Positions 1-62,760 of a stretch of 64,000 nucleotides of DNA are shown here, one piece after another. How positions within the stretch are numbered: position 1 is the stretch's first letter; every line of letters begins with the position of its first letter. The stretch is from positions 10,467-74,466 of the IMG/VR virus record IMGVR_UViG_3300009428_000004. One strand, given 5' to 3'. Both the position numbers and the translations under genes were made by a program. Origin of the DNA: a virus. The notes below the pieces were generated by a model. It was not told the origin of the DNA. It was given only the letters and a program-made list of their open reading frames with translations, and ran no database searches.

Positions 1-256
1 CGGTGACACTTACTCTAGTATCGTCTATGAATGTGAGTCCCAGTTTGGTTTTTGCTGTAACGATCTCATCGTCCATAGATAAACCAGTTCCCTTCTCCGT
101 AGAAATGCTATCACCATCTCTCGTTATTTGTGCAGGGTTGCCCTTTTGCGAAGTAATACTACCAATCGTTTCCGTAGTATTACCCAACGCAAAGGAACTA
201 GCAAAACATAGTATAAATGTAAATAGTAGATTAATTCTGTATGATGTTAATCGCAT
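1..256 (-). CDS. Secreted FecR-domain-like protein, N-terminal part (runs off window edge; not in ORF track)
   Basis: Manual translation MRLTSYRINLLFTFILCFASSFALGNTTETIGSITSQKGNPAQITRDGDSISTEKGTGLSMDDEIVTAKTKLGLTFIDDTRVSV: signal peptide plus FecR-type pattern; start overlaps the curlin-like gene end. Confidence 0.7.
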   Translation of the reverse strand, partial: MRLTSYRINLLFTFILCFASSFALGNTTETIGSITSQKGNPAQITRDGDSISTEKGTGLSMDDEIVTAKTKLGLTFIDDTRVSVT

Positions 257-923
257 TACTATCACCATCAACTGTCATAGTAACTACAGGAATATCTGTA
301 GTAGATTGTGTGAGATTTATCTCATTGAAGTTACTAGACACATTACCGCCAACTGTTATAGTATTCACTGCATCGGCAGCATCCAATTCTAGATTGACTG
401 TGTTATAATCACCAGTGGTCGCTAGAGTTGTAGTCGTATCAGTAACGCTGACCTCTGTTGTACAGGTTGCTATTGTGCCTGTGGTAGAAGCAGTCGATAC
501 TCCGTCCGTAACTGATCCTACAGATGCAACTCCAGAGTTGTCGTTGGTACCGCAGACTGTTACCAGATTGCTGTCGCCTGTCACCGTTGAAGTGAAGGTC
601 GTTCCGGTTGTGGCAATACCCATCACAGTTTCGTTCGAGTCACCAGTATTCAATATATTGATGGTTGTTGAACTAGATCCTGCACTCGTGGATATATCCG
701 TTTTGTTGGAATTACCTTGTTGACTGATATCTATGTCCTGACTATCGCCATTTAAGGTTGTGGCAGTTGTTGAATTACCCACGGTGTTGCCATTACCGGT
801 TTGAGTGATATCGATTGTACTGCTAGAACCAGCCTGCACAATGTACACGTCACTAGCGTGTGTGGTTGTAGCAAAAGCCGCAAATGCGATCAGTGCTATA
901 GTGTAAAGCTTTAAATTGCTCAT
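231..923 (-). CDS. Curlin-repeat-like secreted protein (CsgA/CsgB-like)
   Basis: Signal peptide MSNLKLYTIALIAFAAFATTTHA; repeats IDITQTGNGN, IDISQQGNSN, INILNTGDSN, VTGDSN, TTGDYN, VDGDSN; T/S/N/G-rich; directly downstream of csgG. Start taken at ATG 923. Confidence 0.7.
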   Translation of the reverse strand: MSNLKLYTIALIAFAAFATTTHASDVYIVQAGSSSTIDITQTGNGNTVGNSTTATTLNGDSQDIDISQQGNSNKTDISTSAGSSSTTINILNTGDSNETVMGIATTGTTFTSTVTGDSNLVTVCGTNDNSGVASVGSVTDGVSTASTTGTIATCTTEVSVTDTTTTLATTGDYNTVNLELDAADAVNTITVGGNVSSNFNEINLTQSTTDIPVVTMTVDGDSNAINIIQN

Positions 924-1021
924 ATGTATTACTCCGTTTTGTTCGATCTCTCCCGACAACGAACATATTTTTTTAGTTTTACTTACTCCTCATATCAAAG
1001 GTGTTATAATTTTATAAAGGT

Positions 1022-1810
1022 CTACTTAACGTATTGCCAGTATTCCTTCCTTTCTCCTTCTTTAATCAACTCAACGACGGCTTGCTCTATAGCAACTCTT
1101 ACGGCATAATTGACGGGTTCATTAATAGAATGACCCATTTCTGCCTCTAGCGAGTTTGTGCCCATATCGAAAAATCTAAAGAATGTCATGCTTGTTCCAG
1201 TGCTTATAATAGTTTTTGTAGTTGAAACACTTAACAACACTTCTCCGCTTTGTACGCTTACCATTCTAATAGTTACAGTCACTATGTCCTGTCTGTATTG
1301 GGTACTGGGACCGACACCTAAGTATCGAGCACCTGCACCACCGGTTAGCACATTGGAATCATATCCAATTATGCCTCCCTCTACTAAGACCCCTGCAAAT
1401 AGCATCGGTCTCAATTCTCTTGTATCCTTCACAGCCGCTCGGCTCTGACGAATTATTTGCCTTTCTTTAGTTAGATTTTCTAACCCTATTCTCTCTACTA
1501 CTTGAAACCAAGTGCCTCCTCCAACTTCTTGAAGCGCCTTGATCAGCCAAACTTCAGAGCCCTGCGTGACAGCGGTACTAATGTTAGCCATTCTTTCACT
1601 AGGCTTTCTCTGTCCTGTCTTATCAGTGAACCCATATACTGCTACAACTGCTTTACCTGTAGAAGGAGCTGGCATAGTAAGAAATTCCGTATTTTCATTC
1701 TTAACTACTTTTGCTGTTTCTGGCTCGGGCTTAAATCCAAAGTCTTCGGTCAGTGTAGCACATCCACTTGTAGTCAGTACTAATGCTAATAGCGCAAGAA
1801 ATTGTTTCAT
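1022..1810 (-). CDS. csgG: Curli secretion pore lipoprotein CsgG
   Basis: Lipobox LTTSGC; motifs VAVYGFTDKTGQRK, STAVTQG, WFQVVERIGLENLTKERQIIR, EGGIIGYDSN, GGAGARYLGVG, YRQDIVTV. Confidence 0.95.
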   Translation of the reverse strand: MKQFLALLALVLTTSGCATLTEDFGFKPEPETAKVVKNENTEFLTMPAPSTGKAVVAVYGFTDKTGQRKPSERMANISTAVTQGSEVWLIKALQEVGGGTWFQVVERIGLENLTKERQIIRQSRAAVKDTRELRPMLFAGVLVEGGIIGYDSNVLTGGAGARYLGVGPSTQYRQDIVTVTIRMVSVQSGEVLLSVSTTKTIISTGTSMTFFRFFDMGTNSLEAEMGHSINEPVNYAVRVAIEQAVVELIKEGERKEYWQYVK

Positions 1811-2283
1811 TAGAACGAAAAATCTCCTACAGGAACGTCAAATTCGGAAACGATATCACCATTGGAATCTGTGACAGTTACGTATATTCTACCGCCCTCT
1901 TGTTTCCATGCAATTATATCTCCAAATGGAGTAGTTGCTTCGTACCATTCTCCTTCTATTGTTTCTCCACCACCTTCACCGAATAGCGAGTCCGCTATAT
2001 TCTTAGAGAGGGTTGCATAAATTCTAGACTCTAAATTGTTCTGGAACTTATACGCATTGGTAGATTTCAAATCACGTTCTGCTTCGTCTTCCCGTGCCTT
2101 TTTCTCGTCCTTAATCTCTTTTCTTCTATTAGCCTCTAACTGCTCTATTGTCAGTATGTGCGAACTGTAACCGTTGCCATTAAAAGCTGGAGATACAAAT
2201 ACATGCGTCAGCTCACTTGCTGTCGAATGAGATGTCATCACCGCTGTTAGTACTATCACGGTTGTTATCAAATATTTTTTCAT
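1810..2283 (-). CDS. csgF: Curli assembly protein CsgF-like
   Basis: Signal peptide then ELTHVFVSPAFNGNG, later FQNNLESRIYATLSKNIADSLFG; TAATG-coupled to csgG. Confidence 0.8.
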   Translation of the reverse strand: MKKYLITTVIVLTAVMTSHSTASELTHVFVSPAFNGNGYSSHILTIEQLEANRRKEIKDEKKAREDEAERDLKSTNAYKFQNNLESRIYATLSKNIADSLFGEGGGETIEGEWYEATTPFGDIIAWKQEGGRIYVTVTDSNGDIVSEFDVPVGDFSF

Positions 2284-2536
2284 AATCGTTTTTATCCTGT
2301 TGTTGTAAGATCATGTCCAGTTTAGTTTTGAGCCTAATCAAGTCATTATCTAACATTCTTACTCTATCGATCAGTGCTATCAGTGTCATATGTGACTCGC
2401 CAATAACCGGATCGACCTCTTCCGTTACCCAGTTCCAGATATAGTATATGAAGTACCCTAGTCCTACTGCGGCTATAATTGGAAAGCCGTATTGCGAGAT
2501 CATCTCAGCAATATTAAGTGTTTCTGCCTCAGGCAT
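2213..2536 (-). CDS. Small membrane protein, YvrJ/BhlA-like (GFPI motif + TM + coiled coil)
   Basis: ISQYGFPIIAAVGLGYFIYYIW then LIDRVRMLDNDLIRL; paralogue of 2913..3191. Confidence 0.6.
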   Translation of the reverse strand: MPEAETLNIAEMISQYGFPIIAAVGLGYFIYYIWNWVTEEVDPVIGESHMTLIALIDRVRMLDNDLIRLKTKLDMILQQQDKNDYEKIFDNNRDSTNSGDDISFDSK

Positions 2537-2723
2537 CTTCTTTATCTGATCCTATTTTCATTAACCATCCATTTTCGTTTACAACGAAAGTATCTCCTGG
2601 CTTATATAAGTGGTTGTTTTTAGCTGTTCCATCTTTTTGAACACCCATGACTTCTCCTTCCCACTCTCCCTCAACTTTAAAATGTGCGCCAACTTGGTTA
2701 ATATTATAATCAAGCCAAAGCAT
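2529..2723 (-). CDS. Small hypothetical protein (KxGDTFVV family, copy 2)
   Basis: Likely start MLWLDYNIN at 2723; LYKPGDTFVVNENGWL. Confidence 0.6.
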   Translation of the reverse strand: MLWLDYNINQVGAHFKVEGEWEGEVMGVQKDGTAKNNHLYKPGDTFVVNENGWLMKIGSDKEDA

Positions 2724-2913
2724 TATCTGTATCCTCAAATGCGTCCATAATATTGCCTCTATGTTCGAAGTAGCCACTAGGACCAACTACAAACGTATCC
2801 CCTATCTTCAATAGACCTTCATCGATCATATGAAACTTATCGTCTGGATTGTCTTTTTTGACAACCCTAAACCCGTTATCGAACTTCATTAAGTCGTAGT
2901 CTTTATAGTACAT
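2710..2913 (-). CDS. Small hypothetical protein (KxGDTFVV family, copy 1)
   Basis: LLKIGDTFVVGPSGYF; TAATG-coupled to the upstream gene. Confidence 0.65.
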   Translation of the reverse strand: MYYKDYDLMKFDNGFRVVKKDNPDDKFHMIDEGLLKIGDTFVVGPSGYFEHRGNIMDAFEDTDNALA

Positions 2914-3191
2914 TAATCTTTCCTCGCATCTTTCTGACCATCGGCTCTCGCCACTCTATCCAGGTCTGGGCTTACATTGTGAGCGTGACAAATCATGAGG
3001 TCTATTCTCATGACTTCATTGTTCATCGTCTTAATTCTATTATCTAAGGCTTGTGCAAAGCCTCTTTGTGTTTTGATGTCCGACAATACTCCGTCGAGGA
3101 TAAACCTTAGCGTAAGAAACACGAAAAATCCACCTGACAGGGCTGCCGCAATTGGAAACCCAACATCTGCTATCAAACTTAGCACGTCCAT
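2913..3191 (-). CDS. Small membrane protein, YvrJ/BhlA-like
   Basis: IADVGFPIAAALSGGFFVFLTL then LDNRIKTMNNEVMRID; RBS AAGGAG. Confidence 0.65.
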   Translation of the reverse strand: MDVLSLIADVGFPIAAALSGGFFVFLTLRFILDGVLSDIKTQRGFAQALDNRIKTMNNEVMRIDLMICHAHNVSPDLDRVARADGQKDARKD

Positions 3192-3213
3192 AAATTCACT
3201 CCTTTACTATAGT

Positions 3214-3221
3214 TATTTATA
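3214..3221 (-). promoter_or_regulatory. T4-type late promoter TATAAATA heading the curli operon
   Basis: Exact tatttata on + strand, about 22 nt upstream of ATG 3191. Confidence 0.85.
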
Positions 3222-3244
3222 AAAAAAGGCTCGTTAGAGCCTTT
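3221..3244 (-). terminator. Rho-independent terminator
   Basis: AAAGGCTC-TAAC-GAGCCTTT followed by a T run that merges into the late promoter. Confidence 0.8.
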
Positions 3245-3271
3245 AAAATTAGTAAATAAGTGTGAAGATAC

Positions 3272-3646
3272 TCAGTCTTCCTCGTCTGGATCCCTATCAC
3301 CACTATATTCTATGAATCCTATTAACATAAGAGTCGCAAATATGTCACCAACTGTGCCCATTAAGATGTATGGAAGACAGTAGTAGAATAGTTCAATGTA
3401 ACCAAGCTCATACACGATGAACATTGCCATCAATAGAATCATGCGTATCTGCCACATCTCAGATAGATTTCCCTCTTCTATCTCTATTCGCATATCTTTC
3501 ATTCCGATAAGAACTTGAGTAGTGATGAAGTAAAATAAGGAAGAGTATCCGCCAAGTATTATCATGATGATATATTCTGCTTCTGGGAGGGGATTGACAA
3601 AAACTCTAGCTAGTATTGCTAGACATAATGTATAGATGAATATCAA
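3272..3646 (-). CDS. Hypothetical multi-pass membrane protein
   Basis: Several hydrophobic segments; overlaps the iscU stop. Confidence 0.6.
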   Translation of the reverse strand: MIFIYTLCLAILARVFVNPLPEAEYIIMIILGGYSSLFYFITTQVLIGMKDMRIEIEEGNLSEMWQIRMILLMAMFIVYELGYIELFYYCLPYILMGTVGDIFATLMLIGFIEYSGDRDPDEED

Positions 3647-4044
3647 ATTGCTTCCTCTTTTTGCTTTTGTATTTTGTCTCGTAAATCTTTGACTGCGGTC
3701 TTAATCGCATCTTCGGCAAGTACGGAACAATGTATCTTGACTGGCGGTAATGCCAACTCTTCAGCAATCTGGGTATTCCTGATAGACTCTGCATCATCTA
3801 ATGTTCTACCTTTAACCCACTCTGTTAGTAGTGAGCTAGAGGCAATGGCTGAACCGCACCCGTAAGTTTTAAACTTAGCGTCTTCGATAATACCATCTTC
3901 TCCAACTTTGATCTGTAACCTCATTACATCTCCGCAAGCAGGGGCACCTACCATACCAGTACCAACTTTAGGATCTGTAATGTCGAAAGAACCCACATTG
4001 CGTGGGTTCTCATAGTGGTCGAGTACTTTGTCGCTGTAAGCCAT
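3643..4044 (-). CDS. iscU: Fe-S cluster scaffold IscU
   Basis: YSDKVLDHYENPRNVG, GAPACGDVMRLQI, KTYGCGSAIASSS, LPPVKIHCSVLAEDAI. Confidence 0.97.
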   Translation of the reverse strand: MAYSDKVLDHYENPRNVGSFDITDPKVGTGMVGAPACGDVMRLQIKVGEDGIIEDAKFKTYGCGSAIASSSLLTEWVKGRTLDDAESIRNTQIAEELALPPVKIHCSVLAEDAIKTAVKDLRDKIQKQKEEAI

Positions 4045-4074
4045 AAGAGGCTCCTGTTAACGCATGTACTGTAT

Positions 4075-5265
4075 TTAGTACTGGCTGCCTTCATAGTCTC
4101 CAGTGTTCTGGATTTCTTCACCAGTAGGCTCTTCAGTGGTTACATCAGCATCGATCTTACTGTAGAGATCAAGGAATGCCGCACGGGTATCAGCATCAAA
4201 ACGATTGACACATAACTCGATGGCTTTCATACGATCACTGAAGATCGAGAAGGTCTGTACAATGTGGCACAACCTACGAGTTGAGATAATCTCATCAATC
4301 CCACCATCTTCGAAAGTCTTACGAATCGCTTGAGCCCACTGAACTAGTTTTTCTGTAAACTCTTTATCGTTTGCACCAAACTTTGACATGTGGTTAGTAA
4401 CGATACGCTTCTCAGTAGCCGCTGTTGGGTAAGGTTGCTCAAGAGTAATAGTGAAACGCTCGAGGAATGCCTCATCGATAATCGTAGCCGCAATGAAGCG
4501 ACCCTGTTCATCACCTTGACCTTTAGTGTTAGCAGTAGCAATCACGTTAAAGCCAGGAGCAGGCGTAATCACTTCACCAGTTTTCTTGATAAGAACTGGC
4601 TTGCCTTCTAGCACACCCTGTAGACACATTAGCTTGTTAGAGCCACGGTCAATCTCATCGATCATCAGTAGGGCACCAGCTTCCATCGCTTTGATGACTG
4701 GACCTTTTGCAAAGACTGTCTCGCCATTCAGCAAGCGGAATCCACCAATCAGATCATCTTCATCAGTTTCGGGTGTAATCTGAACACGAACATATTCACG
4801 TTTGGCGTTAGCACAGGCTTGTTCGATCATCATCGTCTTACCGTTACCAGACAGACCGGCAACATACATTGGGTAAAACATATTAGACTTGACGATCTTA
4901 AGAACGTCAGAGAAATATCCCCACTTCACAAAAGTAGGATCAGCAGAAGGTATGTAGACTTCATCCGAAGAGGTAGACTGGACCCTAGCAACTGCTTTTG
5001 CTATGGGAGTCTGCTCGACTTGAGGTGCGGCAACTGGTGCGGCTAAAGGAGCATTCATCTGGATCACATTGCCAGATCCTACCATCTGATAGACACCACG
5101 TGCGACACGAGGCATTTGCTTCATTAGTGTATAAGCGGCAGAGCCAGAAAAGCCCTGTTCTTCAGCGAACTTGAAAAGCTCGGCTCGCTCAAACGAGTCT
5201 TGGTTAGGATTAGATGCTACAAAGGCATCGATTAGTTCAGCTTGGGTTTTTGAAATATTCATCAT
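4075..5265 (-). CDS. cobS: MoxR/CobS-like AAA+ ATPase (T4-like phage 'CobS')
   Basis: Walker A GLSGNGKT, Walker B LLMIDEID, ANTKGQG, FLERF; start likely MMNISK at 5265. Confidence 0.9.
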   Translation of the reverse strand: MMNISKTQAELIDAFVASNPNQDSFERAELFKFAEEQGFSGSAAYTLMKQMPRVARGVYQMVGSGNVIQMNAPLAAPVAAPQVEQTPIAKAVARVQSTSSDEVYIPSADPTFVKWGYFSDVLKIVKSNMFYPMYVAGLSGNGKTMMIEQACANAKREYVRVQITPETDEDDLIGGFRLLNGETVFAKGPVIKAMEAGALLMIDEIDRGSNKLMCLQGVLEGKPVLIKKTGEVITPAPGFNVIATANTKGQGDEQGRFIAATIIDEAFLERFTITLEQPYPTAATEKRIVTNHMSKFGANDKEFTEKLVQWAQAIRKTFEDGGIDEIISTRRLCHIVQTFSIFSDRMKAIELCVNRFDADTRAAFLDLYSKIDADVTTEEPTGEEIQNTGDYEGSQY

Positions 5266-5309
5266 AATATAGGTACTCTCTTCATTGGTTAATCTCAATC
5301 TATACAAGT

Positions 5310-5348
5310 ATTATAGCAGGTTGAGCCACAATGTCAACCATTATTTTC
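5310..5348 (-). promoter_or_regulatory. Early sigma70 promoter cassette
   Basis: GAAAATAATGG-TTGACA-N16-TATAAT with extended -10 TG. Confidence 0.85.
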
Positions 5349-5353
5349 ACTTT

Positions 5354-5557
5354 TTATTGCTCAAATGGCTTGGTTGCAAACCATCGGACGGCATGGTCAT
5401 CTTGGATATCCATTAGATCGACTTTCAGTTCGGCTAACAATACCTTAGTCTCGTGAGGTATTGCACCTGGTCGAATACTTTCTATAGTAGCGAAGGCATT
5501 CTGAGCGGCAGTAATTGCCTGCATTTTTTCTTGAACATTTTGCATTTTCATCTCCAA
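5354..5557 (-). CDS. Small early hypothetical protein
   Basis: ORF between two promoter cassettes. Confidence 0.6.
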   Translation of the reverse strand: MEMKMQNVQEKMQAITAAQNAFATIESIRPGAIPHETKVLLAELKVDLMDIQDDHAVRWFATKPFEQ

Positions 5558-5581
5558 AGGTTTAACTCAATTTCAGATTAT

Positions 5582-5620
5582 ATTTTAACAGGATTGACAC
5601 TAATGTCAACCCTTATTTTC
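5582..5620 (-). promoter_or_regulatory. Early sigma70 promoter cassette
   Basis: GAAAATAAGGG-TTGACA-N16-TAAAAT. Confidence 0.8.
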
Positions 5621-5625
5621 GTTAT

Positions 5626-7839
5626 TTATGCAACTAATTCCGCAAACTTAGTGGTAATTACTCTGTTACCCTTCTTAGATCCACTGAACTTCTTAAAAGC
5701 TCGGGCGATCTGGGCTGGGGTAGCTTCAGCATCAACTTGAAACTCATCATTCTCACCAGACATACTAGCAGACTTGTCGACCATGATGAAGCGGCGATCA
5801 TATCCGTCAGCATTGTCCATGATCCAAACTCCATTATCTCTCATATCTTTCTGAGCCTTTCGTTGGGCAGTAGTGTCCCAAGGCAATAAGCGATGCTGTT
5901 CATATTTGAAGTCTCTTCGAGTACAGATGAAGAAGTTGGCTGTTTGAACATTTTTACCAGCAACAGCGTTCAACAATGCTGAGGTGTTCGAAGAATCGTA
6001 TCCATAACGTGAAGCAATTTCAACTTGCTTTCCCTTGACGTTCATAACGTATCGTTTAGCCCAACCACGATCTTGGTTCTCAACATCTTTTCCGCTAATG
6101 TGTCGAGCAGGATCACTAGCTCCATCTGTCAGAGTAATCAGGTTCATCTTATGCACTGGATTAGTACGCAGGAAGTCCTGAATGGCAAACTGACTAGCTA
6201 GTATTGCCGCATTCAAAGGCGTACTACCTAAACGCTCTAGAGGTCCCATGCATCGTGGTTGCTGACCGTGAAAGAATGAAGTACGCATTGCGTATTCTAA
6301 CTCACTTTTGGACATCTTATTAGAAAACAGTTCGATGAAAACCAGGTCTTCATAATCAAACTTAGTGTTAACACCACCAGCTTGTCTGATATTTGCCAAT
6401 CTGTTACGTCCATTATTATCAGTAGTGAATGCAAAGACCTCGAAAGGAATATTAACTCGCTTGCAGAACTGAACCAGAGATATCGTTTGACGTATCACTG
6501 AATCGAGTTGCTGGTACATTGAGCCAGAATAATCGACTAGCATCATCATGCCGTGGTTCTTACCGTCTGCTAGTGTAGTCACTTGCTTAAACAGGTTATC
6601 GTCATACTTGTAGGCGTGAAGCTTGTTAACGTCAATCGAACCCTTAGTAGAAGTACGGGCTCTGGCTGAACGATAGGCTGCCTTACGCATCTCAAATTCT
6701 TTAGCCATAAGATTTACAACGCCCTTGTTTTCGGACATGAAAGCGTCATAATCTCTGCTCGAATCATCCATCTCGGTTTGATAATCATGTTCAGTAAGCT
6801 TTTTACGAAATTCTTTACGATTTTCTAGCACTTCTTTATAGCCAACTTTAACTATATCGTAGACTGCACGGTTCATGCCTTGAAGAAACAGCTTATCAGT
6901 TTCTTCAACTAGATCACTCATATTCTCACGTTGAGCTTTCTCAGTTTTGATTTCAGGAAGATTTTCAGGTACATCATCAGGCGAATTACCAGCACCGCTA
7001 CTGACTGAACTCTCAGAATTCTCTTCAGACTTCTCTTCAGACTCCTCGCCGCTAGAAGATTTCTCACCCTCTTGATCAGACTCTTCACTTTCACCAGAAG
7101 CTTCACCAGCTCCGGACTCTTCGCCCTCATCACCATCTTCATCAGAGTCGGATTCTGATTCCGAAGGCTCACCCTCTTCACTCTGCTCTTCAGAACTCTC
7201 ACCGAATAGATCGGCTATGTCTTGGGCAGTCATTTCGGACTCTTCAGACTGGCTTTGACCGTTCGTGGTCTCATCACCGTCTTCTTGCTCCTCTTTCTTG
7301 CCGTCACCTAACCAAGCGACCAATTCTTTACAAACATTGGCAACATCTTCGAAAGTTTCGACAGCCATTGCTTTTTTGAAGTAAGGCATTTCCTCTTCAG
7401 AGAACTCGACTTCGACTAGATCACGACCCTTAGCTTTAAGGTTCAATCGATCCATGAAACCCATTTCGTTAATGTCATTATCTTTGGTACCGAATATGTC
7501 TCGATTCATGAGACCAAGATAACCACGTTTGAAATTAGAAACTAGACCAGGATACTTGTCAAGAACTTTACGCTCGATGCGGATATCTTCGACAACGTTC
7601 ATATAAGAATGTGGAACACCAGGAACGGTGATCTCTTCTTTAGTCTGTGGGGTAAATAATGCGTGACCAATTTCATGACCAATCAGAAGATCGGTCTCAT
7701 CAGCAGACATCTCTTTCCAGAGAGGCAAACCAAGAGTACGATTTTCTACATCAAAAAATGCTGTGGGATAGTTGCCCTGCTCAACACTGATATTCTCGTT
7801 GGCAAGCAATCTGGCTAATACTGACTTTGACTGTAACAT
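5626..7839 (-). CDS. CobT-like/VWA protein with N-terminal HEXXH metallopeptidase-like domain
   Basis: LIGHEIGHALFT; long acidic Ser/Glu linker; MIDAS motif LVDYSGSM, later TPLN and ITLTDG. Confidence 0.85.
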   Translation of the reverse strand: MLQSKSVLARLLANENISVEQGNYPTAFFDVENRTLGLPLWKEMSADETDLLIGHEIGHALFTPQTKEEITVPGVPHSYMNVVEDIRIERKVLDKYPGLVSNFKRGYLGLMNRDIFGTKDNDINEMGFMDRLNLKAKGRDLVEVEFSEEEMPYFKKAMAVETFEDVANVCKELVAWLGDGKKEEQEDGDETTNGQSQSEESEMTAQDIADLFGESSEEQSEEGEPSESESDSDEDGDEGEESGAGEASGESEESDQEGEKSSSGEESEEKSEENSESSVSSGAGNSPDDVPENLPEIKTEKAQRENMSDLVEETDKLFLQGMNRAVYDIVKVGYKEVLENRKEFRKKLTEHDYQTEMDDSSRDYDAFMSENKGVVNLMAKEFEMRKAAYRSARARTSTKGSIDVNKLHAYKYDDNLFKQVTTLADGKNHGMMMLVDYSGSMYQQLDSVIRQTISLVQFCKRVNIPFEVFAFTTDNNGRNRLANIRQAGGVNTKFDYEDLVFIELFSNKMSKSELEYAMRTSFFHGQQPRCMGPLERLGSTPLNAAILASQFAIQDFLRTNPVHKMNLITLTDGASDPARHISGKDVENQDRGWAKRYVMNVKGKQVEIASRYGYDSSNTSALLNAVAGKNVQTANFFICTRRDFKYEQHRLLPWDTTAQRKAQKDMRDNGVWIMDNADGYDRRFIMVDKSASMSGENDEFQVDAEATPAQIARAFKKFSGSKKGNRVITTKFAELVA

Positions 7840-13126: not shown

Positions 13127-13315
13127 TTATCCTCTCAGCAATTTCTTATCTGTTAAGTCTGCGATTTCAGCATCTTCTCCAAAATCCCAGCCCATTTGTC
13201 CGAGGGATTCTGGTCGAATCTCAACGAGAAGGCTTTCGCCCTCCCGTCCTCGAGTTTCATTACCGTCAGCGTTTAGCTCGGTCATGCCTTTTAATTTTTG
13301 TTTGTAATTTTCCAT
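13127..13315 (-). CDS. Small late hypothetical protein
   Basis: First gene after TATAAATA at 13321. Confidence 0.55.
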   Translation of the reverse strand: MENYKQKLKGMTELNADGNETRGREGESLLVEIRPESLGQMGWDFGEDAEIADLTDKKLLRG

Positions 13316-13320
13316 AATAG

Positions 13321-13328
13321 TATTTATA
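13321..13328 (-). promoter_or_regulatory. Late promoter TATAAATA
   Basis: Exact match overlapping the phoH stop codon. Confidence 0.75.
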
Positions 13329-29754: not shown

Positions 29755-29762
29755 TATAAATA
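29755..29762 (+). promoter_or_regulatory. Late promoter TATAAATA (plus strand)
   Basis: Exact match upstream of RBS TAGGAG and the lipase ATG. Confidence 0.8.
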
Positions 29763-29784
29763 AATTGATATAGGAGAAATAAAT

Positions 29785-30552
29785 ATGACCCAAATCACTT
29801 CACAACCAATACTAGTTCGTTCACTGTTATTCGCAAGGCTCTCACAGATAGCATACTTAGATGAACCAGAAGCAAGCAAGGCAGCCAGAGCATTAGGATT
29901 TACCACAACAGAGTTTTATGAAAGAGATGGAGCTCAGGCATACAGATTTCAAAATAAGTCTGATCTAGTTATCGCATGTAGAGGCACACAGCCTACGGAA
30001 TTTGGCGATATCAAAGCTGATCTAAAAGCATTCCCAGTATTAGCTGAAACAATCTCTAGAGTTCACAGCGGATTCAAGACTGAAGTAGACGATCTATGGC
30101 CGATGATTATTGAAGACATTGCAAGAACAGTAAACGCTAAGAAAATGCTATGGTTCTGCGGTCATTCTCTGGGTGCGGCAATGGCTACTATCATGGCGTC
30201 TAGATGTACTCACGATGATACACTAACTAGTCCTTCAATGGTATTTACGTTCGGTTCACCTAAAGTTGGTTGGCCAACATACTGTAAGTCTTTAGACGTT
30301 GTGCATCATAGATGGAAGAATAACAACGACATCGTAACTACTGTTCCTTTACGTGTAATGGGATATAAGCATCACGGTGAAGAGCATTACATCAATGCGT
30401 ATGGCTTAGTTAGGAATCCAACTGGATGGCAAAGAGTTAAAGATAAGTTTCGTGGTATTTGGATGGGATTAAAACAGGGCAAGATAGACTCATTCTCCGA
30501 TCATAGTATCGATGAATACATCAAACACATTGATAACGCTATTCGTGGATAA
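29785..30552 (+). CDS. Lipase class 3 (alpha/beta hydrolase)
   Basis: VIACRGT, VHSGF, nucleophile elbow GHSLGAAMA, FTFGSPKVG, DIVTTVP, FSDHSI. Confidence 0.92.
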   Translation: MTQITSQPILVRSLLFARLSQIAYLDEPEASKAARALGFTTTEFYERDGAQAYRFQNKSDLVIACRGTQPTEFGDIKADLKAFPVLAETISRVHSGFKTEVDDLWPMIIEDIARTVNAKKMLWFCGHSLGAAMATIMASRCTHDDTLTSPSMVFTFGSPKVGWPTYCKSLDVVHHRWKNNNDIVTTVPLRVMGYKHHGEEHYINAYGLVRNPTGWQRVKDKFRGIWMGLKQGKIDSFSDHSIDEYIKHIDNAIRG

Positions 30553-62233: not shown

Positions 62234-62695
62234 CTATTCTTGTAGTAGTTCTTTCTCTCCCGTATTAAGCTTCTGCCCAATCTTAATTTTCTTAGGCTTC
62301 TGCTCCTCTGGGATGACGTTTTCTAACAAGATACGAAGCATACCATTCTCAAGTCCTGCATCTTTCACAATTACCGTTTCAGCAAGTGTGAATGTTCTCG
62401 TGAAAGCACGAGCGGCAATGCCTTTGTGAATGTACTCTTTATCTTCAGAGTCCTCAACCTTACCTTCGACTGTTAGGACACCTTCTTTGACTTGAATGTC
62501 AAGAGATTCCTCAGTGAATCCAGCAACTGCCATTTCAACGATATACGTTGTATCACTTTCTCTCGTGATATTATATGGCGGATAGTTACTGGCACCTCTA
62601 TCGTTGGGCGTTTGATGCATCGCTTGGATGCGTTCAAAGATTCTATCGAATCCTACGGTTGTAAATGGATCGTACTGTGTTTGCATATAAGTCAT
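62234..62695 (-). CDS. hsp20: Small heat-shock protein Hsp20
   Basis: VGFDRIF, YPPYNI, MAVAGF, HKGIAARAFTRTF, LENGML. Confidence 0.96.
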   Translation of the reverse strand: MTYMQTQYDPFTTVGFDRIFERIQAMHQTPNDRGASNYPPYNITRESDTTYIVEMAVAGFTEESLDIQVKEGVLTVEGKVEDSEDKEYIHKGIAARAFTRTFTLAETVIVKDAGLENGMLRILLENVIPEEQKPKKIKIGQKLNTGEKELLQE

Positions 62696-62760
62696 ATTGA
62701 CCTCCTGTTAAGCAAGGGTTATTGTTATGAGTCCCCGAAGGCAACTCACATGTATTTATA
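62696..62760 (-). promoter_or_regulatory. Late promoter plus ROSE-like RNA thermometer leader
   Basis: TATAAATA, UUCG-capped hairpin, then CCCUUGCU-UAAC-AGGAGG with the UUGCU anti-SD motif. Confidence 0.7.

Follow-up and report, generated by a model that had tools for sequence, protein, structure and literature searches.

Gene clusters resembling the bacterial curli, or type VIII, secretion system (T8SS) have been described in marine phages. Zaragoza-Solas et al. (2020; PMC7029224) reported the operon in pelagimyophages and proposed 'sibling capture'. Buchholz et al. (2022; PMC9004378) modelled CsgG and CsgF of Melnitz, a phage of OM43, and proposed a lysis-timing pore. Wittmers et al. (2022; PMC9599517) identified the curlin subunits, the FecR protein and the cyclase, reported transcripts in metatranscriptomes and inferred transfer of the module between phage families; in that study the module was present at all 65 GOV2.0 stations and accounted for about 0.1% of assembled viral proteins, and the hosts SAR11 and OM43 have no curli at all. 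No late promoter has been tied to the cluster in these three papers: the word 'promoter' is absent from PMC9599517, and late-promoter prediction failed in pelagimyophages (PMC7029224). Herein, we describe a curli-type cluster at the left end of a viral DNA stretch of 64,000 nucleotides (nt), hereafter the window (bases 10467-74466 of IMG/VR record IMGVR_UViG_3300009428_000004), and report that it is headed by a conserved T4-type late-promoter motif, TATAAATA.

The coding sequences of the window lie nearly all on the minus strand, and its G+C content is even at about 40%. The first gene of the cluster starts at 3191 and the last is cut at position 1. Adjoining genes overlap or almost abut, and the start codon of csgG overlaps the stop codon of csgF. 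The features are as follows.

3225..3244, minus strand: intrinsic terminator hairpin marking the end of the upstream unit, with an 8-bp stem, a tetraloop and a T7 tail.
3214..3221, minus strand: TATAAATA, T4-type (gp55) late-promoter motif, an exact box 22 nt 5' of the first ATG.
2913..3191, minus strand: A1, membrane protein of 92 amino acids (aa) (phrog_18771, E 5e-26).
2710..2913, minus strand: s1, 67 aa, paralogue of s2, between A1 and A2; assigned to no family.
2529..2723, minus strand: s2, 64 aa, ATG at 2723, paralogue of s1 (BLASTP E 3e-5).
2213..2536, minus strand: A2, 107 aa, paralogue of A1 (phrog_18771, E 3e-30).
1810..2283, minus strand: CsgF homologue, 157 aa (PF10614, 51.2 bits vs cut-off 25.8).
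1022..1810, minus strand: CsgG homologue, 262 aa (PF03783, 183.7 bits vs cut-off 20.8).
231..923, minus strand: curlin-repeat protein 1, 230 aa from the ATG at 923 (PF07012, 25.0 bits vs cut-off 20.7).
1..271, minus strand: FecR-domain protein truncated at the window edge, 5' part with the first 90 codons (phrog_37870).

A preliminary description of the window, made by reading the sequence, had proposed this tightly packed set of genes, including CsgF, CsgG, curlin-repeat and FecR-like proteins and two small paralogues, and had pointed to csgF and csgG in marine T4-like phages from metagenomes. The gene set and its positions were confirmed, the hidden Markov model searches for CsgG, CsgF and the curlin repeat all exceeded their cut-offs, the paralogy of s1 and s2 was recovered, and the three papers cited above substantiate the occurrence of such genes in marine phages. 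Its interpretation of a phage-borne T8SS cluster with a pore, a partner and a candidate substrate thus stands; it does not stand as a discovery, because the module, the curlins, FecR and the cyclase are already published. To judge from its genes, the cluster is a further copy of the viral T8SS ('phage curli') module and not a new one. What is added here is the conserved late-promoter wiring, the linkage of A1/A2 to the module and the intact CsgF motif, which is an incremental advance and not one of a new kind.

Homologous modules are widespread. A megablast search with window positions 1-6000 against 50,697 phage records gave no match, and the nearest isolates are related at the protein level only. 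In the same records, tblastn with CsgG identified the Pelagibacter phage HTVC008M, four Melnitz strains and one unannotated 1.5-kb fragment of a Salmonella phage; in IMG/VR, at least 598 contigs encode a relative of the window CsgG. The annotations of HTVC008M and Melnitz list CsgF, CsgG, a curlin protein, FecR, a second curlin protein and the cyclase in this order, which is the order given in PMC9599517 and is also present in the contig studied here and in its relatives. The module of HTVC008M (Zhao 2013 annotation), which is also found in uncultured pelagimyophages (PMC7029224), has the same order, with two membrane proteins of about 93 aa, CsgF, CsgG (48% identical to that of the window), a curlin-repeat protein, a FecR-like protein, a second repeat protein and the cyclase, all in a variable region of a T4-like genome as in our contig. 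The window differs in having two extra small paralogues between A1 and A2 and a G+C content of about 40%, whereas HTVC008M has a phytanoyl-CoA dioxygenase-like gene between its terminator-plus-TATAAATA and A1, and a second TATAAATA 5 nt before csgF. In Melnitz (PMC9004378), the gene order agrees as well, FecR, both curlin-repeat proteins and the cyclase included; identity to the proteins of our contig is 51% for A1, 65% for A2 and 47% for the cyclase. The HTVC023P-type pelagipodophages (PMC9599517) share the core CsgF-CsgG-CsgA/B-FecR-CsgA/B-cyclase, and their module lacks CsgE, CsgC and CsgD. Unlike the myophage of the window, these podophages have no gp55, and the late-promoter logic therefore applies to the myophage copies. 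Compared with the curli systems of bacteria (csgBAC-csgDEFG of E. coli; csgGF plus curlin operons of alphaproteobacteria), the full-length CsgG and CsgF homologues and the substrates with curlin repeats and Sec signals are alike; however, CsgE and CsgC were not found, A1/A2, FecR and a CHASE2 cyclase are added, and a putative phage late promoter takes the place of CsgD/RpoS control. The preliminary description had noted that none of CsgE, CsgC and CsgD is visible in the window; a search of the whole contig bore this out for CsgE and CsgC, CsgD not having been searched.

The start of the cluster was then considered. The terminator at 3244-3225 has a folding energy of -12.6 kcal/mol (z = -4.0), and 0/200 shuffled sequences fold as well. 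Its T7 tail merges into the TATAAATA box at 3221-3214, which is separated by a 22-nt spacer with an AAGGAG Shine-Dalgarno sequence from the A1 ATG at 3191. Both elements had been named in the preliminary description, the terminator as insulating the cluster and the box as lying about 22 nt ahead of the first gene, and both hold at these positions. The window contains 12 copies of TATAAATA against 4.85 expected. No sigma-70-like site is present between the terminator and the A1 ATG, and matches in the region are at chance level.

Conservation of the box in related phages, a check named in the preliminary description, was assessed next. In the closest relatives, the terminator-box-leader arrangement is kept whole despite diverged surrounding sequence, and the terminator-plus-box layout is also found in the relatives L003, L004, L005, L020, L023 and L087. 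Among 23 non-identical loci with A1/A2 ahead of csgF, searched within 60 nt upstream of A1 or csgF, an exact TATAAATA heads the cluster in 17/23, compared with 3/261 of the other starts of open reading frames (ORFs) in the same loci. Loci without A1/A2 have TTAAATA, GTAAATA or ATAAATA 15-45 nt 5' of csgF. When all unique loci are considered, NTAAATA is found at the cluster head in 58/69, compared with 55/437 (13%) of the remaining ORFs that are preceded by a gap (Fisher p = 3e-33, a value that overstates the support, as do the other p-values of this kind, since the loci share ancestry). A second set, collected independently by way of the A1/A2 family, has exact TATAAATA within 60 nt of A1 in 34/75 loci and NTAAATA in 51/75, and several further loci have NTAAATA at 60-90 nt. 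The enrichment of the motif at the cluster head is 6- to 40-fold across diverged relatives. Leaders that have diverged around a persisting motif are what one would expect to see if a promoter were under selection.

The identity of the motif is indicated by the complete Melnitz genome, in which TATAAATA precedes the genes for the major capsid protein, prohead core, tail sheath, baseplate wedge, neck, fibre and head completion. Because it precedes these virion genes, TATAAATA is taken to be the late promoter of the lineage. The late motif accepted for T4-like cyanophages, NATAAATA (PMC2984593), agrees with the motif at the cluster head. Collectively, the motifs suggest that the cluster is probably transcribed late, during virion building.

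RNA data are consistent with expression of the unit. Metatranscriptome contigs from 3 runs of 2 studies match parts of it at 90-99% identity, in agreement with the expression reported in PMC9599517. The listed pieces from RNA libraries reach up to 3208 and 3196, barely within the transcript that is expected, and contigs of this kind cannot establish 5' ends. A published time-course transcriptome of pelagiphages covers two podophages only and does not mention curli or CsgG, and is therefore silent on the timing of the module.

Further occurrences of the motif were recorded in the same survey. The distance from TATAAATA to the next ORF-opening ATG, determined at 240 non-identical sites in related loci, shows a spike of 20 sites at exactly 5 nt, compared with 1-2 sites at 4, 6 or 7 nt, and a broad class with Shine-Dalgarno leaders at 18-39 nt. 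Examples of TATAAATA-N5-ATG are found at window 13315-13328 (minus strand), at L001:2211 and L001:3493 in HTVC008M, and at csgF itself in several lineages. In phage T4, late transcription starts about 6 nt past the box. If transcription starts at this distance here as well, the TATAAATA-N5-ATG sites, including those directly before csgF in some lineages, indicate that these phages may make leaderless late mRNAs. Two other genes of the window also follow the motif. An esterase/lipase-like gene (phrog_21992; 29755-30552), which is among the few on the plus strand, starts 22 nt downstream of an exact TATAAATA. The Hsp20 gene (62234-62760, minus strand) has TATAAATA 57 nt upstream, and hsp20 of Melnitz has it 61 nt upstream; late-promoter control of hsp20 thus seems conserved in the lineage. 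In relatives without A1/A2, a small divergent gene lies directly 5' of csgF (L006:5183-5449, L007:5222-5500, L021:5139-5387). By eye, the C-terminal end of its product looks like a Fis-type helix-turn-helix, and it could be a module-specific regulator.

The channel proteins were compared with their E. coli counterparts. Residues 4-259 of CsgG align with solved E. coli CsgG (3x2r/6l7a; E 7.5e-49). Its hydrophobic leader ends in a T-S-G-C lipobox with Cys17 aligned to the E. coli L-S-G-C, as judged by reading the sequence, and in the constriction loop, inspected by eye on the alignment, Tyr and Phe are replaced and Asn is kept. In E. coli, the N-terminal segment of CsgF inserts into the CsgG barrel and plugs it. 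The CsgF of the window covers positions 5-131 of the 132 positions of the PF10614 model with its residues 10-150, and comprises a signal peptide, an N-terminal F-x-S/N-P-x-F-x-G motif, a neck helix and a C-terminal domain. In 31 viral CsgFs, conservation is highest in the segment directly behind the signal peptide, with F29, F34 and G36 invariant and P32 nearly so. A single-sequence phmmer search of the PDB missed E. coli CsgF, and a profile of the viral CsgFs was needed; this profile, built from the 31 proteins, aligns end to end with the E. coli CsgF chain 6l7a_J of the CsgG-CsgF cryo-electron microscopy entry, the viral N-terminal segment aligning with the TFQFRNPNFGGN segment and the neck helix and C-terminal domain being aligned as well. 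Viral CsgF thus appears to be a full-length CsgF that keeps the N-terminal channel-insertion motif. The Melnitz paper (PMC9004378) argued that CsgF has diverged and might not pair with CsgG. In contrast, the motif and the architecture are kept in all viral copies considered here; such conservation weakens the idea that phage CsgF has drifted from CsgG.

Two candidate substrates accompany the channel. Behind its signal peptide, curlin-repeat protein 1 is made up of repeats, each about 22 residues long, that contain Q-x-G-x-x-N motifs, and it is a candidate secreted subunit; like curlin-repeat protein 2, encoded beyond the window edge, it has a signal-like N-terminus and a repeat period of 22-23 residues. 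Protein 1 matches CsgA weakly (E 3e-4), and protein 2 matches both CsgA and CsgB weakly. The AF2 model of protein 1 consists of strand-turn-strand repeats with paired short strands (pLDDT 75), and its weak Foldseek matches are to other beta-helices and FapC. By their scores, both are best described as curlin-repeat proteins and not as orthologues of CsgA or CsgB.

The unit runs on, unbroken, past the left edge of the window into the remainder of the single 91,017-bp viral contig from which the window is taken (L083; about 53% complete according to CheckV). It comprises about 7.4 kb and 12 minus-strand genes in total, in the order A1, s1, s2, A2, csgF, csgG, curlin 1, FecR, curlin 2, two small ORFs and the CHASE2 cyclase. 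The genes that reach or lie beyond the window edge are listed below.

L083 9619-10737, minus strand: complete FecR-domain protein, 372 aa (PF04773, 32.2 bits vs cut-off 24).
L083 8664-9656, minus strand: curlin-repeat protein 2, 330 aa (PF07012, 31.6 bits vs cut-off 20.7).
L083 8504-8671 and 8310-8531, minus strand: two overlapping small ORFs, 55 and 73 aa; assigned to no family.
L083 6277-8313, minus strand: CHASE2 adenylate/guanylate cyclase, 678 aa.

The FecR protein has a signal-peptide-like N-terminus and weak matches to LipL45 and Lsa33 of Leptospira, and the cyclase has its CHASE2 domain and a membrane region ahead of the catalytic domain. In relatives, other small ORFs occupy the gap between curlin 2 and the cyclase. 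No convincing minus-strand terminator was found within the unit, the single weak match lying inside the cyclase gene, and a near-consensus sigma-70 promoter past the cyclase opens the next unit. Since the contig encodes gp55, gp45, gp44, gp43, gp41, UvsX, gp46, gp47, RegA and part of gp23, it is assigned by gene content to a marine myophage related to T4, of the same kind as HTVC008M and Melnitz (Kyanoviridae). Late-transcription machinery is thus encoded by the phage itself, with gp55 as late sigma factor and gp45 as clamp; its gp55 is 54% identical to that of Melnitz.

The genes ahead of csgF were also characterised. A1 has a single N-terminal transmembrane helix, a coiled-coil tail and an almost invariant C-terminal end of acidic and basic residues, D-A-R-K/R-D. 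A2 is likewise a single-helix membrane protein with a coiled-coil tail, with a conserved L-I-D-R-V-R-M-L-D-N-D segment, and the two are paralogues (BLASTP E 1e-9). Between them, s1 and s2, which have a GDTFVV motif in common, are an insertion found in some lineages only; where the insertion is present, A1 and A2 are spaced by about 660-680 nt, compared with about 280 nt elsewhere. No Pfam or NCBIfam family reaches its threshold for A1 or A2, no kinase domain is present, and a profile of the family gave generic coiled-coil matches only (PspA/Vipp1, GCN4) in the PDB. The preliminary description had called these proteins YvrJ-like, a label that is not supported: A1 scores 12.4 bits against a PF12841 cut-off of 29.5, and the weak YvrJ matches in 10/32 family members (best E 0.004) cover the first 12 model positions only. 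PMC9599517 calls the genes ahead of csgF 'histidine kinases', a label likewise unsupported for the window, where they encode single-helix membrane proteins of 92 and 107 aa. All of the 100 nearest Atlas clusters of A1/A2 are viral, and the nearest named ones, which serve as leads only, are YvrJ (0.85-0.87; 0.85 for A2) and Holin_BhlA/UviB (0.83).

The distribution of the pair follows that of the module. Among phage records, A1/A2 are found only in HTVC008M and the Melnitz strains, which are the annotated genomes carrying CsgG. In A1 loci with at least 3.5 kb on each side, A2 adjoins A1 in 46/46 and CsgG is present in 42/46; the remaining loci, without CsgG, have the cyclase in a convergent layout. 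Given that their occurrence tracks CsgG and that they are always paired, A1/A2 are best regarded, from these genomic associations, as a virus-specific accessory of the curli module and not as a general lysis gene. Other layouts were also seen: A2 lies ahead of csgF and A1 between csgF and csgG at L068:4881-5995 and L078:3786-4888, and at other loci A1-A2 form a separate unit converging on the cyclase end of the module. A more adventurous proposal, to which we give little credence, is that A1/A2 could be a virus-invented inner-membrane part that gates or times the T8SS in place of CsgE/CsgD control, or couples it to lysis; on this view the module would serve 'envelope remodelling' late in infection and would not be a borrowed biofilm system. 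Separately, leaderless late mRNAs may be made from the TATAAATA-N5-ATG sites.

We consider it reasonably probable, if far from certain, that the published T8SS module is here a late-expressed system acting at or after lysis. The unit would be transcribed together with the virion genes in a gp55-dependent manner, and CsgG, CsgF, both curlin-repeat proteins and the FecR protein would be exported by Sec. The CsgG lipoprotein and CsgF, with its plug motif kept, would assemble an outer-membrane channel, through which both curlin-repeat proteins would be secreted, to polymerise on the outside of the infected cell. A branch made up of the CHASE2 cyclase and the periplasmic FecR-domain protein might report on or regulate the envelope and link its state to cyclic-nucleotide signals, with the A1/A2 membrane pair as a virus-specific accessory. 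A conserved late promoter on the myophage copies narrows the functional options: it argues against early roles, such as cofactor import for replication or immediate superinfection exclusion, and late timing speaks for a function at the time of lysis or afterwards, for example in forming a coat on cells and debris, in clumping them, or in what becomes of the released progeny. Association of the products with the virion seems unlikely because they carry predicted Sec or lipoprotein signals. Phage curli modules are abundant in the ocean and their function is acknowledged as an open question, which these additions make more testable; they also correct the literature on two points, in that viral CsgF appears complete and the genes ahead of csgF in these myophages encode small membrane proteins, not kinases.

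Several observations weigh against a late, surface-polymerising system. In addition to the shared ancestry of the loci compared, the exact TATAAATA of Melnitz abuts the A1 start codon, and a TTAAATA 23 nt 5' of the A1 ATG is the more plausible box there. The RNA-library contigs carry no information on start or timing and may contain DNA, and gp33 was not found in the contig, which is about 53% complete. The curlin-repeat proteins score 20.7-30.6 bits against NCBIfam equivalog cut-offs of 160-165 for CsgA and CsgB, and a Foldseek search with the curlin 1 model found no significant match to a curli subunit in the PDB or among Swiss-Prot models. A complex prediction with 3 mature CsgG and 3 CsgF peptides (residues 24-70) scored 0.02, which is evidence neither way, and no clumping of Melnitz-infected cells was seen (PMC9004378).

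Other explanations were weighed against the same evidence. Nearly all loci, like the published modules, conserve FecR and the CHASE2 cyclase alongside csgFG; FecR has a signal peptide and the cyclase a membrane region, and CsgE, the periplasmic gate, was not found in the contig; these points would suit a trans-envelope sensor or conduit in which the CsgG/CsgF pore, FecR and the cyclase form a signalling or uptake chain setting cyclic-nucleotide levels, with the curlins as accessories. However, the two signal-peptide curlin-repeat proteins are as conserved as FecR, a nucleator-type architecture is kept in CsgF, and late timing is a poor fit to cofactor import for replication, and we judge such a conduit unlikely. 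Repurposing of the CsgG pore, with or without CsgF, as a pinholin- or secretin-like channel that times lysis, as proposed for Melnitz, with A1/A2 as holin-like partners, strikes us as quite improbable. A late-promoter motif is expected of lysis genes, 0.7 kb past the cyclase there is a gene for a SleB-type endolysin that has a TATAAATA of its own, and A1/A2, with one transmembrane helix and a coiled coil, have YvrJ (0.85) and Holin_BhlA/UviB (0.83) as Atlas leads. However, CsgG, as a predicted outer-membrane lipoprotein, could not bring about depolarisation of the inner membrane, conservation is clear for the curlin cargo and for the plug motif of CsgF, no holin family reaches significance for A1/A2, and their restriction to CsgG phages, with CsgG in nearly all A1 loci, is unlike that of a general holin.

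It is also conceivable, though in our view very unlikely, that TATAAATA is not an operative promoter and that read-through, or a promoter that escaped recognition, drives the unit early or during the whole infection. Look-alikes of the box can occur in AT-rich intergenic DNA, the failed late-promoter prediction in pelagimyophages (PMC7029224) points the same way, and some low-depth RNA-library contigs lie upstream of the box; yet a strong terminator stands immediately upstream, the gap holds no sigma-70-like site, the motif is enriched at the cluster head across diverged relatives, and it marks the structural genes of Melnitz. A mis-joining of bacterial curli genes to phage DNA during assembly, which the preliminary description had itself named as fatal to its proposal, was rejected and has next to no probability: the cluster is flanked by phage genes on both sides in one contig, composition is even across the window, the cluster and its order recur in the complete genomes of two isolated phages and in the 598 or more viral contigs mentioned above, and an independent DNA run yielded long contigs crossing the cluster boundary.

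The surroundings of the module beyond the cyclase contain further recognisable genes. The SleB-type cell-wall hydrolase/endolysin (L083:4968-5662) has an N-terminal hydrophobic segment, and is preceded by both TATAAATA and a perfect sigma-70 consensus (TTGACA-16-TATAAT), that is, by early plus late signals. Near it, L083:1433-4947 encodes a 5-aminolevulinate-synthase-like aminotransferase, a zeta-toxin-like kinase, a haem oxygenase and a ferredoxin-dependent bilin reductase. In several relatives (L006, L021, L022, L026, L030), a ClpS-like gene, haem oxygenase and bilin reductase are found directly 5' of csgF; these haem and bilin neighbours may be compared with the genes in the phage Shemin-pathway paper (PMC11480375).

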